Below, one piece after another: positions 4,121 through 11,143 of a stretch of DNA of 11,143 bases (position 1 is its first letter; each line of letters starts with the position of its first letter). The DNA is from a virus. The stretch is from the UHGV virus genome UHGV-0105484. One strand, written 5' to 3'. Below the pieces are notes generated by a model. It made no database searches. It was given only the letters and a program-made list of their open reading frames with translations, and had not been told where the DNA came from. The position numbers were made by a program, and so were the translations under genes.

Positions 4121-4795
4121 ATGAAAACAATCCATGACATCCGGCGGTCTAACGCCAGAAAACTGAGAGATGGTGTTGGCGGGAATTCTTCCTTTGCCAC
4201 TATGATTGATCGCGAGCCAACCCAGACCAGCAGGTTTATGGGAGATGGTGCTACTAAAAATATCGGTGACAGCATGGCACGACACATCGAAAAATGTTTC
4301 GACCTGCCTGTCGGATGGCTCGATCAAGAACACCAGACAACGAACATCACAAAAAAACCTGATGTTTCAATCACTAATAAACAAATCACATTAGTCCCTG
4401 TCATATCATGGGTACAGGCCGGAGCATGGAAAGAAGTTGGATATTCTGAGGTTGATTTGAGCACAGCAGAAACGTATCCCTGCCCTGTACCCTGTGGGGA
4501 AATGACTTATATCTTGCGGGTGATAGGTGATTCAATGATTGATGAGTACCGCCCGGGAGACATGATTTTTGTCGATCCTGAAGTACCTGCCTGCCACGGT
4601 GACGACGTTATTGCATTGATGCACGATACAGGTGAAACCACCTTCAAAAGGTTGATAGAAGATGGGACACAGCGTTATCTCAAAGCGTTAAACCCAAACT
4701 GGCCTGAGCCTTACATTAAGATCAACGGTAATTGCTCTATAATTGGTACAGTGATTTTCTCAGGAAAACCAAGAAGATACAAAATCAAAGCCTAA
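4121..4795 (+). CDS. CI-like prophage repressor, HTH plus S24 (LexA-like) autopeptidase domain
   Basis: 224 aa; N-terminal HTH region; candidate Ala-Gly cleavage site (VQAGAW); catalytic Ser in GDSM and Lys in FKRL. Divergently arranged with the cro-like gene. Confidence 0.85.
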   Translation: MKTIHDIRRSNARKLRDGVGGNSSFATMIDREPTQTSRFMGDGATKNIGDSMARHIEKCFDLPVGWLDQEHQTTNITKKPDVSITNKQITLVPVISWVQAGAWKEVGYSEVDLSTAETYPCPVPCGEMTYILRVIGDSMIDEYRPGDMIFVDPEVPACHGDDVIALMHDTGETTFKRLIEDGTQRYLKALNPNWPEPYIKINGNCSIIGTVIFSGKPRRYKIKA

Positions 4796-4862: not shown

Positions 4863-5029
4863 GTACCCAAGCGAAACAACGAACAGGCAGGACGCCCACG
4901 AAGTAGCCGCCTGGGGCATATGAAGTCCAGGATGATTCGTTAGCAACAAAAAAGCGCTCTAAAGGACGCTTCGCTCTTTGACAATCTGGTCCCCATCAAC
5001 AAGTAACTGATAACTTGAGGAGGTGTGAA

Positions 5030-5236
5030 ATGCACAAAACAGAACCAAAAATCGTCGCACCCGGATACACAAATGAGGAAATTTACGAGTGGATGGCAAA
5101 GAAGCTGGCAGCTATAAACCAGCTTCGTGAAGTGCTGTCTTATCGACAGGAAACAATAGACTCCTTAAAAAAACTGGATCAGGAAATCACGGTTTTATCA
5201 CAGGATGTTACTTTAGATATTGTGCAGACAAATTAG
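5030..5236 (+). CDS. Hypothetical small acidic protein (68 aa), first ORF of the pL-like operon
   Basis: ATG 5030 with strong SD GAGGAGG 7 nt upstream (the track's 5015 start is TTG). No recognisable domain; not arginine-rich, so not an N-like antiterminator. Confidence 0.45.
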   Translation: MHKTEPKIVAPGYTNEEIYEWMAKKLAAINQLREVLSYRQETIDSLKKLDQEITVLSQDVTLDIVQTN

Positions 5237-5642
5237 GATCCCATTCATTTTCGTCAAAATCATCAAAGTGATGAATTTGTGATCTCCAGTCTCGATAATC
5301 TAAAAATTTCTGGGCGGTTACGCTTATTTTATCAAGCGTGAGTTCATCCTGAATTGAAAGAAGAAGTTCATCAAATTTCATCTCATTAATCTGTTTTGGC
5401 ATCCAGTGATGCTTCATCAGAATAAGGTGAACCAGAGCTTTTTTCCCATTCAACTGATTATAGGGAGTGCCGAATTTCTTCCGGTGCTCATGTAAGACAA
5501 GGTCCAGAAGAGTAAGTAATGTTGCCCTTGATTCAACTTTGCTTATTTCGACTGATGACACTACCCCACTGATTTCAATGCCCCGATACTTTCCAACATT
5601 TTCACAGTGGGATTTGTACAGCGTATAGATATTACCGGACAT
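5208..5642 (-). CDS. Hypothetical protein (144 aa), AT-rich accessory gene convergent with the 68-aa ORF
   Basis: ATG 5642 with SD AAGGA about 7 nt upstream. Soluble, no recognised motif. AT-rich relative to flanks. Its 3' end overlaps the 68-aa ORF by 29 bp. Confidence 0.5.
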   Translation of the reverse strand: MSGNIYTLYKSHCENVGKYRGIEISGVVSSVEISKVESRATLLTLLDLVLHEHRKKFGTPYNQLNGKKALVHLILMKHHWMPKQINEMKFDELLLSIQDELTLDKISVTAQKFLDYRDWRSQIHHFDDFDENEWDPNLSAQYLK

Positions 5643-7439: not shown

Positions 7440-7988
7440 ATGTCATTTATTAAAACTTTTTCCGGGAAGCATTTTTATTATGACAGGATAAATAAAGACG
7501 ACATCGTTATTAACGATATCGCGGTTTCTCTTTCAAATATCTGTCGCTTTGCAGGACATCTTTCACATTTCTACAGCGTCGCCCAACATGCAGTTCTTTG
7601 AAGCCAGCTGGTTCCGCAGGAATTTGCTTTTGAAGCATTAATGCATGATGCAACAGAAGCGTATTGCCAGGACATCCCCGCGCCACTGAAACGCCTTCTT
7701 CCTGACTATAAACGGATGGAAGAAAAAATAGACGCCGTAATCCGTGAGAAATACGGGTTACCCCCGGTTATGAGCACGCCCGTGAAATATGCCGATCTCA
7801 TCATGCTGGCAACCGAACGCCGCGATCTCGGGCTTGATGATGGCTCTTTCTGGCCTGTGCTGGAAGGTATCCCGGCAACAGAGATGTTCAACGTGATTCC
7901 ACTGGCACCGGGCCATGCCTACGGGATGTTTATGGAACGCTTTAAAGAGCTGCATAAGATACATAAACAATCCAGACAGCGAAATTAA
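7440..7988 (+). pseudogene. yfdR: YfdR-like HD-domain 5'-deoxynucleotidase interrupted by an in-frame TGA (codon 54, 7599-7601)
   Basis: ORFs 7413..7601 and 7641..7988 are in the same frame and together read MSFIKTFSGKHFYYD...FAGHLSHFYSVAQHAVL-[TGA]-SQLVPQEFAFEALMHDATEAY..., about 182 codons against about 178 aa for YfdR. The first fragment carries His residues and the second the HD dyad. Real ATG is 7440 (7413 is GTG). Confidence 0.65.
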
Positions 7989-8031
7989 CTAGTGAAATAG
8001 TTTTGTAGCAAAAGAAATGAGGTTATCAAAA

Positions 8032-8277
8032 ATGCTTCAAATGCTGACACTTGAGGAATGGGCTGCGGAAAAATTTAGGAGTAATCCTCCAAGTGTGTCC
8101 ACATTGCGTCGTTATGCTAAGCAGAATTTATTTTGTCCACCGGCAATGAAACAAGGTCGACTATGGCGAGTGCGTGAGGACGCAGAGTTAGTTGGGGAAT
8201 TAGTTACTCCTGTCATCAAGAAAAGTGATTCTATTATTCTACAAAGGATTTTAAGTAATGGCAGCCAGACCACGTAA
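8032..8277 (+). CDS. xis: Excisionase (lambda Xis family)
   Basis: MLQMLTLEEWAAEKFRSNPPSVSTLRRYAKQNLFCPPAMKQGRLWRVREDAELV... parallels lambda Xis (MYLTLQEWNARQRRPRSLETVRRWVRECRIFPPPVKDGREYLFHESAVKV). 3' end overlaps int by 20 nt, as in lambda. Alternative in-frame ATGs at 8017 and 8041. Confidence 0.8.
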   Translation: MLQMLTLEEWAAEKFRSNPPSVSTLRRYAKQNLFCPPAMKQGRLWRVREDAELVGELVTPVIKKSDSIILQRILSNGSQTT

Positions 8278-9385
8278 AAATAATGTTTCAGTCCCGAACT
8301 TGTATCCGCTCTATAGCAGAAAAGTAAATAAAGTCTATTGGCGATATAAGCATCCAGTGACCGGGAAGTTTCATTCTTTGGGCACAAACGAAGCTGAAGC
8401 CATTGCTATTGCCACTGAGGCCAATACACGCCTAGCTGAGCAAAGAACCCGGCAGATTCTGGCTATCAGTGACAGGATCGCAACCAGCAAAGGAAAAGCA
8501 ATCACAACGTCAACCTGGTTAGATCGCTATCAAGCAATCCAAGATGACAGACTGAAAAGTGGCGATATAAAGCTCAATACCTATAAACAGAAAGCCAAAC
8601 CAGTATCCTTGCTCAGGGAACGAGCAGGAATGAAGTTTATTTCATCCGTTGATGTAAGGGATATCGCACAATTGCTTGACGAGTATATCACCGCCGGGCA
8701 ACCGAGGATGGCGCAAGTAGTCCGCTCCGTTCTAATTGATGTATTCAAGGAGGCACAACACTATGGGGAAGTCCCTCCGGGCTATAATCCAGCACTGGCA
8801 ACCAAACAACCCAGAAGAAAAATTACCCGACAACGGTTAAGTCTTGAAGAATGGCAAAAAATCTTTGATATTGCAGATGCCAGTCATCGTTATATGGGGA
8901 ATGCCATGCTGTTAGCACTGGTTACCGCCCAGCGGTTAGGTGATATCTCACGTATGAAATTTAGCGATATTTGGGATGATCATCTTCACGTCATCCAAGA
9001 AAAAACAGGGAGCAAAATCGCCATCCCACTTTCCCTTCGCCTCAATGCGATTAACTGGAGTTTACGCGATGTAATAGCCCGCTGCCGTGACTATGCAGTC
9101 AGCCCATACCTGGTGCATTTTTTCCGTTCAACTTCACAAGCAGAACGTGGGGCACAGGTTAAATCCAATACATTGACGACGAATTTCAGTAAAGCGAGGG
9201 ATTTGGCAGAAATCGACTGGGGTGATGGCACACCCGCAACATTCCATGAACAAAGGTCTTTATCTGAGCGACTTTACGAAGCTCAGGGTGTCGACACCCA
9301 AAAACTTCTGGGGCATAAATCGCCTAATCAAACCGCTCGCTACCACGATGATCGCGGAAAGGAATGGATAAAGATTCAAAACTAG
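8258..9385 (+). CDS. int: Lambda-family tyrosine integrase
   Basis: 375 aa. N-terminus has an arm-binding-type region (PNLYPLYSRKVNKVYWRYKHPVTGKFHSLG). C-terminal catalytic motifs: Arg in TAQRLGD, HEQRSLSERLY (His-x-x-Arg box) and LLGHKSPNQTARYHDDRGKEW (Tyr nucleophile). Confidence 0.9.
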   Translation: MAARPRKNNVSVPNLYPLYSRKVNKVYWRYKHPVTGKFHSLGTNEAEAIAIATEANTRLAEQRTRQILAISDRIATSKGKAITTSTWLDRYQAIQDDRLKSGDIKLNTYKQKAKPVSLLRERAGMKFISSVDVRDIAQLLDEYITAGQPRMAQVVRSVLIDVFKEAQHYGEVPPGYNPALATKQPRRKITRQRLSLEEWQKIFDIADASHRYMGNAMLLALVTAQRLGDISRMKFSDIWDDHLHVIQEKTGSKIAIPLSLRLNAINWSLRDVIARCRDYAVSPYLVHFFRSTSQAERGAQVKSNTLTTNFSKARDLAEIDWGDGTPATFHEQRSLSERLYEAQGVDTQKLLGHKSPNQTARYHDDRGKEWIKIQN

Positions 9386-9398
9386 CGTAATTTATTTG

Positions 9399-9827
9399 TT
9401 AATTTCTAATAGACAAAAGGACTATTTGAATAACAATAAATATAATTTGTATTAAAGTTACAACTGCAAGAGTTAATGTAAGCGATGCGATAAAGTAGGT
9501 TTTAATACTTGAAAGACAAAGCAATGATAATAAAAGAGTAATACCAAGTTGAATAAAGCATACAAAATAAAAGATCATTGCGCCCTGTAAATATCCGTGT
9601 GCCCTAAATCTTTGTATGTTAGCATTATCTAAAGAAGTTAATATGACAATAAGAGCAAAAATGAGCGCCATCATTGCTGTCGCATACGATGCTAAAGCTG
9701 AACCAAGACCATCTAGATGTTCTTTGAAATTTACCCCCGGTAGAATATCATAGCGATATTTGTACACGCCAAAGCCAATAGCGTTTGTCATAATCGTTAA
9801 AACCACGGGGGGAAACCATTTAATCAT
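9399..9827 (-). CDS. RexB-like small integral membrane protein (4 predicted TM helices)
   Basis: 142 aa from ATG 9827, which lies 1 nt after the upstream stop (TGAnATG); the track's longer start is 9857. Four hydrophobic segments. Motif LPGVNFKEHLDGLGSALASYATAMMALIFAL matches lambda RexB as recalled (IPGVSFSAHRDGLGATLSSYAGTMIAIL); size matches RexB (144 aa). AT-rich. Confidence 0.6.
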   Translation of the reverse strand: MIKWFPPVVLTIMTNAIGFGVYKYRYDILPGVNFKEHLDGLGSALASYATAMMALIFALIVILTSLDNANIQRFRAHGYLQGAMIFYFVCFIQLGITLLLSLLCLSSIKTYFIASLTLTLAVVTLIQIIFIVIQIVLLSIRN

Positions 9828-9828
9828 T

Positions 9829-10644
9829 TCAGTATCCAGCAGCCCTAAGATCTGCATTATTAATAAAGTTAGTTACCATTTGGCTCTCTATAGATATATT
9901 TGCGTTTTTATTGACTATATCATAGATGCCACCCGTTGTCGCGACATGAAGCTCAATCGCTTGGTCTCCTAGCGCTTGCTTCGCCGCTATTGTCATTTCA
10001 CGGATACCTGCTGGTAAGTTGTTTAATGTTGGACTAATGGTATCCTTAATGTTTTTAAGATGTTTTGGTTTAATAGTAATTTCAAAACTGTCTACATCAT
10101 TAAGATCAACAGCTGTTATACCAAGAAAATTTGTCATCTCCCTTAACGCGAAAGGAGAATTAGGTTCTAATTTTACATTGATTTTCCCCATATGTGCATA
10201 CTGCAATGCCTGGGCTGGCGTAACAGTTTTCTTGATGGGCTCAAATCTTATATTTCTATTGTTATTCGTATTAAAGAAAAAGTTGTCATAATATTTACCA
10301 AAAGAGCCAATTTTGGGACCAAAGAGAGTCGAGCCATACCCTACACAACGATTAGAAATGTAAATATATGAGGCAAAAGCAACGTCCTGATTTTGTTGCA
10401 GCAATGCCGTAATGTCCTGGTAGTTGTTATTAACTCTATCGATGGTTTTTATAATGTCTGTATTATTTGTTTTTAAAAACATAAATACATCACCCAATAT
10501 ATGATGTATCGAGTAATACGAACCATCTAACCTAACTGTTTGTGTGTTGCTCTGAATGAGTTGCAGAAAAGAAGAGCTAAGAGAACTCGCAAGAGGTTGC
10601 CCGTTTTGCGGATAAAGATCATATTTGTAATAATTCGTTTTCAT
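9829..10644 (-). CDS. RexA-like soluble protein (271 aa)
   Basis: Complete ORF from ATG 10644 in a roughly 30% GC island. Size and position (upstream of and coupled to the membrane gene) match lambda RexA (279 aa). Recalled RexA motifs have counterparts: Y-x-Y-I-H, F-x-F-x-KTN (FMFLKTNN), T-x-FGP (STLFGP), I-x-IKPK (EITIKPK). Not confirmed by database search. Confidence 0.6.
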   Translation of the reverse strand: MKTNYYKYDLYPQNGQPLASSLSSSFLQLIQSNTQTVRLDGSYYSIHHILGDVFMFLKTNNTDIIKTIDRVNNNYQDITALLQQNQDVAFASYIYISNRCVGYGSTLFGPKIGSFGKYYDNFFFNTNNNRNIRFEPIKKTVTPAQALQYAHMGKINVKLEPNSPFALREMTNFLGITAVDLNDVDSFEITIKPKHLKNIKDTISPTLNNLPAGIREMTIAAKQALGDQAIELHVATTGGIYDIVNKNANISIESQMVTNFINNADLRAAGY

Positions 10645-10712
10645 CCCTAATCATCTTATGATTTATTGTAGGTAAACCTATTCTCTTCATTATGTGTTCA
10701 AAATCAATCGTT

Positions 10713-10744
10713 TTGATAAATTTTTTTGATAAATCTTTGATAAC
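10713..10744. promoter_or_regulatory. Three tandem TTGATAA repeats upstream of the rexA-like gene, near the icd junction
   Basis: ttgataaa (10713-10720), ttgataaa (10726-10733), ttgataac (10737-10744), spaced 13 and 11 bp, in the 160-bp gap between the rexA-like start and the icd stop. Confidence 0.4.
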
Positions 10745-10765
10745 CGTTCGAATACTAATAATATA

Positions 10766-10796
10766 AACGGGAACCATTTGGCTCCCGTTTTTGTTT
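10766..10796 (-). terminator. Hairpin terminator immediately downstream of icd (potentially bidirectional)
   Basis: 10-bp stem aacgggaacc / ggctcccgtt (one mismatch), loop attt. Followed on the plus strand by TTTTTGTTT and on the minus strand (icd sense) by a U/A-rich tail, 16 nt after the icd stop. Confidence 0.55.
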
Positions 10797-10811
10797 AACC
10801 CAGAATCTGGA

Positions 10812-11143
10812 TTACATATTTTCGATGATCGCATCACCAAACTCTGAACATTTCAGCAGTTTAGCGCCTTCCATCAAACGTTCGAAGTCATAGGTTACGG
10901 TCTTCGCATTGATTGCGCCTTCCATACCTTTAACAATCAGGTCTGCGGCTTCGGTCCAACCCATGTGGCGTAACATCATCTCAGCAGAGAGAATAATAGA
11001 GCCTGGGTTAACTTTGTCCTGACCGGCATATTTCGGCGCAGTACCGTGGGTAGCTTCAAACAGGGCGCATTCGTCACCGATGTTTGCGCCAGGGGCGATA
11101 CCGATACCGCCAACCTGCGCTGCCAGGGCGTCAGAAATGTAGT
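10812..11143 (-). CDS. icd: Isocitrate dehydrogenase (NADP), C-terminal fragment; prophage attachment target
   Basis: Minus-strand translation reads ...[96 protein letters not shown], the enterobacterial Icd C-terminus. Host-like GC content, unlike the adjacent AT-rich island. Confidence 0.95.

Follow-up and report, generated by a model that had tools for sequence, protein, structure and literature searches.

Virus genome UHGV-0105484, a stretch of 11,143 nucleotides called here the window, carries two adjacent genes between the integrase gene int of an e14-like prophage and the 3' part of the host gene icd. Their products belong to the families of RexA and RexB, the exclusion proteins of phage lambda. 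The pair is likely to be a Rex-type phage-exclusion (abortive infection) module, a cargo presumably expressed in the lysogen and carried at the int/attL end of the prophage in icd. This reading is the best supported because of the homology of the two proteins, their pairing, the purifying selection acting on them and their neighbourhood. No phage-exclusion system has been known for longer than Rex, yet what triggers it and how RexB acts are unsettled, and it is debated whether Rex serves to exclude phages or to control the lambda switch. What is described here is a divergent RexAB pair in a position that is not that of lambda, detected by Pfam and PADLOC and not by RefSeq. It is an annotation gap, not a discovery. 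The central features are as follows.

10644..9829, minus strand: rexA homologue, 271 amino acids, soluble, without hydrophobic segment
9827..9399, minus strand: rexB homologue, 142 amino acids, polytopic membrane protein with three strong hydrophobic helices and one weaker
9825..9831, minus strand: TGAaATG stop/start junction, candidate site of translational coupling

Homology to lambda RexA and RexB

Both proteins exceed the curated Pfam cut-offs (25 bits for RexA, PF15969; 27 bits for RexB, PF15968). The larger one scores 135.2 bits (E=3.5e-39), its residues 1-228 lying on positions 1-234 of a profile of 235, and the smaller one 68.1 bits (E=1.4e-18). The defence models of PADLOC recognise them over essentially their full length: PDLC02339 (RexA) gives 344 bits (E=1e-103, positions 1-267 of 267), against 364 bits for lambda RexA, and PDLC02340 (RexB) gives 183.6 bits (E=5.3e-55, positions 1-140 of 141), against 202 bits for lambda RexB. 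The lambda proteins are also retrieved directly with BLASTP, at 24% identity over 256 amino acids with one gap for RexA (E=3e-30) and 32-36% identity for RexB (36% across 107 amino acids, E=7e-23). A profile search further assigns the larger protein to the PHROG family 'RexA-like exclusion protein', and a sequence search matches its residues 4-257 to the solved structure of lambda RexA, PDB 8TWQ (E=5e-25). An earlier note, made from the letters of the window, had taken the two genes for divergent homologues, which at these identities they are; its further suggestion of a distinct Rex-like variant was overstated, as the PADLOC scores are near those of lambda's own proteins. Judged by sequence, the two are ordinary and not borderline members of their families, and standard tools would call RexAB. 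RefSeq labels both 'hypothetical' because NCBIfam, which we also searched, has no match for either protein.

Structure points the same way for RexA. An AlphaFold model built from 13 close homologues was unusable (predicted local distance difference test, pLDDT, 49.7) and was discarded. The model built from 136 diverse members of the family is confident (pLDDT 88.3). Compared with the PDB by Foldseek, it finds chains B and A of 8TWQ at the top (E=3e-13, probability 1.00), then the kinetochore proteins CENP-L and CENP-N, to which we take the yeast proteins IML3 and CHL4 to correspond, and RdgC of Escherichia coli (2OWL). The same kind of distant structural relatives is on record for lambda RexA, namely RdgC and, from the yeast kinetochore, IML3 and CHL4 (PMC11077077). 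The global template modelling score (TM-score) between model and 8TWQ is just 0.42, with a root-mean-square deviation of about 17 Å. This value would fit if the two domains met at a different angle in the model and in the crystal; AlphaFold-Multimer predicts an open RexA dimer, whereas the crystal form is closed (PMC11077077).

In the RexB homologue, Kyte-Doolittle means over 19 residues delineate hydrophobic segments at about residues 1-23 (1.24), 41-65 (2.41), 80-105 (2.35) and 111-140 (2.70). Each lines up with one of the four helices described for lambda RexB (topology in bioRxiv 10.1101/2021.04.19.439022). The first is placed by this alignment, since its mean falls under the usual cut-off of 1.6. 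The four-helix membrane protein of 142 amino acids foreseen in the earlier note is thus recovered as three strong segments and a weak one, each with its counterpart in lambda. The same is true of the likeness in size, gene order and motifs on which that note had relied, now upheld by homology over the whole length and by the match of folds. The proteins measure 271 and 142 amino acids, as compared with 279 and 144 in lambda; rexA precedes rexB on one strand, both pairs are AT-rich relative to their own phage, and conservation extends to the IKPK motif and to the HxDGLG loop of RexB.

The open reading frame (ORF) list and the sequence confirm that frames of 271 and 142 codons are joined by TGAnATG and run antiparallel to int (8258-9385, plus strand), hence in the same direction as icd, whose stop lies at 10812. 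The junction reads TAC TGA A ATG ATT, the stop of rexA (9831-9829) being separated by one base from the start of rexB (9827-9825). In its longest form the rexB frame would start at 9857, overlap rexA and encode 152 amino acids. We dropped this start in favour of the ATG at 9827, for three reasons: RefSeq calls the form of 142 amino acids in E. coli GPEC617, the sole near-identical genome; the PADLOC RexB model aligns only from residue 11 of the longer form; and seven homologous loci all yield 142 amino acids, beginning 1-4 nucleotides after rexA. This gap of 1-4 nucleotides holds for seven loci of the clade (the window and six others). It widens to 10 nucleotides in a sister copy of 39% identity (L015 in our series of homologous loci) and to 15 in lambda, where rexB has its own Shine-Dalgarno sequence, whereas here the genes abut. 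With such a junction, translation of the two genes is probably coupled.

Base composition sets the module apart. The GC content is 35.9% in rexA, 33.1% in rexB and 34.3% in the complete interval from the stop of int to that of icd, as against 46.0% in int, 48.2% in the phage DNA to its left and 50.3% in icd. An AT-rich island unlike its flanks had been announced, and it is there, between flanks of 46-50%; the figure given for it, about 30%, should be nearer 35%. In the loci compared, low GC (31-38%) is a trait of the clade irrespective of the host.

Selection, relatives and carriers

Compared with a homologue of 90% identity, the proportions of nonsynonymous (pN) and synonymous (pS) differences are 0.056 and 0.757 in rexA, 0.092 and 0.689 in rexB, the synonymous sites being saturated. 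Purifying selection of this strength means that both are real genes and not chance ORFs. It also bears on the view of the pair as a passenger, inert and decaying, without current function in this host. The rarity of the clade, found in one of 5,426 complete E. coli genomes, would suit such a view, as would a neighbouring yfdR-like gene with an in-frame stop and the truncation of RexB in some Pantoea. However, both frames are intact and of full length, comparison with the closest homologue gives a pN/pS of about 0.07-0.13, and the lengths of 271 and 142 amino acids, together with the junction, are conserved in all the clade loci compared for gap or selection. We find the passenger highly improbable.

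The RexA family is small: out of 1.84 billion sequences, 219 representatives at 50% identity are found with E<=0.001. The window protein forms a cluster of its own, the next relative being 39% identical and those at the level of lambda about 25%. The phage collection searched for this clade held no carrier (best match, 28% identity). The single E. coli genome is that of GPEC617, a chicken isolate, with 99.7-99.9% identity to the window; both genes, located between intE and icd, are 'hypothetical protein' in RefSeq. A search of the complete E. coli genomes at low stringency brought no extra alleles and left this number at one.

The close clade (homologues at 62-90% identity) extends to other genera. 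The order icd-rexA-rexB-int(-xis) is found again in Enterobacter ludwigii, in Atlantibacter and in a read assembly. In Pantoea ananatis and in a contig from compost, rexA-rexB persists in decayed prophage remnants, where int is fragmentary and the far end is marked by a leftover icd' fragment; retention under such conditions speaks for the exclusion module. When the window is compared with the loci of Enterobacter and Atlantibacter, int is better conserved (84-87% identity) than RexA (64-67%). In seven of the eight close-clade loci examined, rexA has a rexB behind it on the same strand, mostly of 142 amino acids. Across the series of homologous loci, the rexA-rexB arrangement occurs in L003-L010, L012-L019 and L023; in the Atlantibacter locus L011 no rexB was called.

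There are carriers other than prophages. A copy of 78% identity lies in an integrative conjugative element of Klebsiella quasipneumoniae with type IV secretion genes (L003 9692-16129), where it adjoins homologues of the DISARM proteins DrmA (E=9e-87) and DrmB (E=7.5e-19), that is, a defence island. The sister clade, at 38-40% identity, is found on ColE1-type plasmids of 3.3-5.2 kb in E. coli, Shigella, Yersinia ruckeri, Serratia and Citrobacter. There RexA has 269-277 amino acids and RexB 145, all are annotated as hypothetical, and the pair is nearly the sole cargo. One of these plasmids, pCD63-2-2 (3,646 bp, L023 684-1965), pairs RexA with a RexB homologue among three annotated genes, none of them a repressor. 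These plasmid pairs, including those of the 5.2-kb plasmids of Yersinia and Serratia, are the nearest sisters of the window pair and share its gene order; they differ in their carrier, a multicopy plasmid instead of a prophage, and in an intergenic gap of 10 nucleotides.

To be nearly alone on a tiny multicopy plasmid, and to be retained in decayed prophages, would be expected of an addiction module as well. RexB would then be a toxin-like membrane protein under the control of RexA, killing or arresting cells that have lost the element, and the depolarisation of the membrane proposed for RexB would indeed be toxic. Yet neither Pfam nor PADLOC reveals homology to a toxin-antitoxin family, addiction activity is unreported for lambda Rex in the literature searched, and the defence neighbourhoods suit exclusion better than addiction. 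We consider such a stabilising role quite unlikely.

Another alternative has to be weighed with more care. The pair might serve the life cycle of the element itself, RexA tuning the repressor switch towards induction while RexB stabilises labile proteins or antagonises RexA. Lambda RexA binds to CI and, independently of RexB, shifts the balance towards the lytic state, and interactions of RexB with CI and with O are reported as well (bioRxiv 10.1101/2021.04.19.439022); control of the switch has been put forward as possibly the primary role of Rex (PMC11077077). The window possesses a cI-type repressor (ORF 4121-4795), which we liken to YmfK by its length and place in the gene order; the YmfK of GPEC617 shares its RefSeq protein accession with that of e14 in strain K-12. 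Its C-terminal domain is of the S24 peptidase type, the class present in lambda CI, a partner of the kind this role would call for. By contrast, about 4.6 kb separate rexAB from the repressor, which is encoded on the other strand, and the pair lies at the end of the prophage. Its relatives live in an integrative conjugative element and on plasmids of 3.3-5.2 kb with no repressor switch seen nearby, and the pair survives in remnants stripped of most of the prophage. The distance from the repressor and the relatives on plasmids, integrative element and remnants weaken this explanation, which we hold to be unlikely, if less so than addiction.

The slot beside the integrase and the probable exclusion module

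The place of the pair in the prophage is itself an argument for exclusion. In K-12, e14 has the order xisE-intE-lit-ymfE-ymfD-icd, and in GPEC617 this becomes xisE-intE-rexB-rexA-icd, in agreement with the claim that the Rex-like module of the window lies in the int-attL interval where e14 carries lit. The e14 slot (L020 2889-5610) contains Lit, recognised by PADLOC with E=8.5e-124, together with YmfE and YmfD. In strain PCP07014 (L021 5146-5982) it holds a protein of 278 amino acids that matches putAbiC of Pfam and AbiP of PADLOC, and in TUM9812 (L022 4869-5915) an uncharacterised protein of 348 amino acids, a candidate defence gene. In each strain compared, int and the slot gene nearest to it converge. 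The int-icd interval thus looks like a site of exchangeable cargo, used largely by abortive-infection genes, in short a small defence hotspot that would be worth a systematic survey in e14-type prophages; about 4,000 E. coli genomes match the 3' end of icd in its phage-type form. The analogy between Lit and the window pair is one of position: they share the prophage family, the type of integrase, the slot with its orientation beside int, and the nature of the cargo, abortive infection (known or candidate, as with the AbiP/AbiC-like genes). Proteins and mechanism are unrelated, Lit being a peptidase that cleaves EF-Tu (PMC6379469). Among the papers in the library searched, none connects Rex genes with e14 or with icd prophages.

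Homologues of RexA and RexB, paired in a constant order and kept by purifying selection, recur in defence-type slots of mobile elements; the int-icd slot is occupied in other strains by Lit or an AbiP/AbiC-like protein, and the Klebsiella copy lies beside DISARM genes. On the pattern of lambda, the RexA homologue in the cytoplasm would sense a signal of early infection by another phage, the presumed target, and act on the RexB homologue in the membrane. The latter would then collapse the membrane potential and the ATP supply, and the infected cell would cease to support the growth of the phage. This scheme derives from the classical lambda model, with RexA as the sensor and RexB as the agent of the collapse of potential (summarised in PMC6379469 and bioRxiv 10.1101/2024.07.02.601686); exclusion by lambda RexA and RexB and their physical interaction are documented (bioRxiv 10.1101/2021.04.19.439022; PMC11077077). 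In contrast to lambda, where rexAB belongs to the immunity operon after cI, the pair lies outside the repressor operon and would be transcribed from a weak promoter apparently its own, just inside the attachment-site arm.

Distant pairs of the same design exist elsewhere. In actinobacteriophages (Sbash gp30/31, CarolAnn gp44/43, Butters) and in the Sucellos system of Vibrio integrons, a cytoplasmic and a membrane protein likewise exclude phages. Some of the actinophage pairs lie away from the repressor, and Rex function is thereby found without the context of an immunity region (PMC11077077); such pairs, located outside immunity regions in actinophages, keep out other phages (PMC11077077, citing PMC6426596 and PMC6426606). 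Sucellos defence requires both genes (bioRxiv 10.1101/2024.07.02.601686). All these systems are far more distant from the window pair than is lambda, with RexA-like proteins of about 340-370 amino acids, and the Pfam model fails to match Sucellos.

Several observations weigh against exclusion as the function of the pair. Lambda RexA Arg219 is replaced by Ala220 (AAK where the family consensus is RAK), and this alanine is invariant in the clade; in lambda, the double mutant R219A/K221A abolishes both DNA binding and exclusion. The lambda data concern the double mutant only, and K221 has its equivalent in K222 of the window protein, also invariant in the clade. In RexB, the acidic residue of helix 3 is absent, FVELG of lambda being FIQLG here. 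This glutamine, Gln92, is common to the window and Klebsiella copies, while the other members of the clade have kept the glutamate; the acidic residue is a proposed proton sink in lambda RexB and not an established criterion of the family (bioRxiv 10.1101/2021.04.19.439022). Furthermore, some copies of the pair are damaged, since in some contigs of P. ananatis RexB is cut to 99 amino acids next to an intact RexA (L006 8818-9117; L008 1005-1304). This suggests occasional decay towards an orphan RexA, a situation noted in other bacteria (PMC11077077). The candidate promoter is weak and falls under the threshold of the promoter scan. Finally, even in lambda the trigger is still a matter of models, as is the channel activity attributed to RexB, and the exclusion of T4rII may be a by-product of Rex expression (PMC11077077).

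Some of these differences would find their place in a bolder proposal, which we advance tentatively and regard as rather less than probable. The clade could represent a Rex that has become free-standing and self-promoted, having moved out of the immunity operon, and that travels as a defence cassette among slots next to attachment sites, integrative conjugative elements and, in the sister clade, plasmids, with a partly different mode of action. The change from Arg to Ala may have weakened or abolished DNA binding by RexA, and that from Glu to Gln in helix 3 may have altered the gating of RexB. Translational coupling may have become obligatory, and antisense transcription into int could damp integrase or excisionase in the lysogen. 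Were this so, the clade would offer a clean system in which to separate the defence role of Rex from its role in the lambda switch. A RexAB pair that lies far from any repressor gene, is conserved across several genera of Enterobacterales and occupies a slot used elsewhere by Lit and Abi-type genes argues that defence is itself a function under selection, and a natural RexAB away from the repressor is a simpler construct for testing that role.

Flanking elements and neighbouring genes

The remaining features of this end of the prophage are listed from icd inwards.

10812..11143, minus strand: 3' part of icd, a host gene (translation and RefSeq annotation); its last 165-200 bp or so are supplied by the prophage, with attL inside
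10765..10790, minus strand: terminator-like hairpin past the stop of icd (terminator scan), conserved in icd-linked loci
10712..10743, minus strand: three direct TTATCAAA repeats, 11-13 nucleotides apart, between the icd terminator and rexA
10680..10707, minus strand: candidate promoter of the module, TTGATT (10707-10702), 16 nucleotides, GAGAAT (10685-10680), with 8 of 12 matches to the consensus
8258..9385, plus strand: IntE-type tyrosine integrase (Pfam Arm-DNA-bind_1 and Phage_integrase; annotation)

Mismatches with the icd of K-12 start to cluster from about 11010 downward. The terminator-like hairpin would separate transcription of icd from that of rexA. The TTATCAAA repeats that come next are kept in every icd-linked locus and absent from the copy in the integrative element; the 8-mer reappears about 127 bp ahead of the residual icd' fragment at the prophage's other end (L007 14381; L013 12091), and one copy stands at 8023-8030 (plus strand) of the window, just ahead of the start of xis. 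Repeats at this place could have been operators of rex. We rejected this possibility because the copy in the integrative element lacks them and they are met again at the far side of the prophage. The integrase has a lambda-type arm-binding domain (E=2e-37), and the repeats are probably its arm-type (P') sites, at the outer edge of the cargo slot. If they are, the rex module begins just inside the attachment site.

Directly after the repeats, a TTG.TTT block is invariant or nearly so in seven loci, including the Klebsiella integrative-element copy, and GAGAAT or a similar hexamer follows the TTGATT block at 16-17 nucleotides in the loci compared. This makes TTGATT/GAGAAT a plausible, if weak, promoter for the module. 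As a whole, the promoter scan returned 11 promoter-like sites against 7.1 +/- 2.5 expected, which is not significant. A site inside rexA at 9942-9914 (GCGACA-17-TATAGT, with an upstream TG) recalls P_LIT, the internal promoter of rexB in lambda. It was not counted as evidence, because its -10 hexamer consists of the conserved codons Tyr-Asp-Ile-Val and degrades in distant homologues; conservation at third positions is not raised there. P_LIT is thus without supported counterpart, and no equivalent of the lambda terminator T_IMM was found here. An immunity-operon position with P_LIT characterises lambda and not the two protein families as such.

At the other end of the module, rexB and int converge with 13 bp between their stops (9386-9398), a distance that becomes a gap of 2 bp or an overlap of 4 bp in homologous loci. 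A terminator scan of 9200-11143 found none after rexB, so that rexAB transcripts probably run, unterminated and antisense, into the 3' end of int.

Two further loci of the window deserve mention. The yfdR-like 5'-deoxynucleotidase gene (7440-7988, plus strand) has an in-frame stop at codon 54, a Cys codon in GPEC617, and is a pseudogene here. The place downstream of the cI-type repressor, which in lambda belongs to rexAB, had been said to hold a different gene pair, and an unrelated pair is found there. Another AT-rich island (about 38% GC) contains two overlapping, convergent genes, at 5015-5236 (plus strand, 73 amino acids) and 5208-5642 (minus strand, 144 amino acids), whose products have no match in Pfam or PADLOC. 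The corresponding place in TUM9812, matched by position and size, is occupied by a protein of 144 amino acids called 'ECs1072 family phage-associated protein' in RefSeq. The window pair, sitting where lambda has rexAB, could be another cargo expressed in the lysogen.

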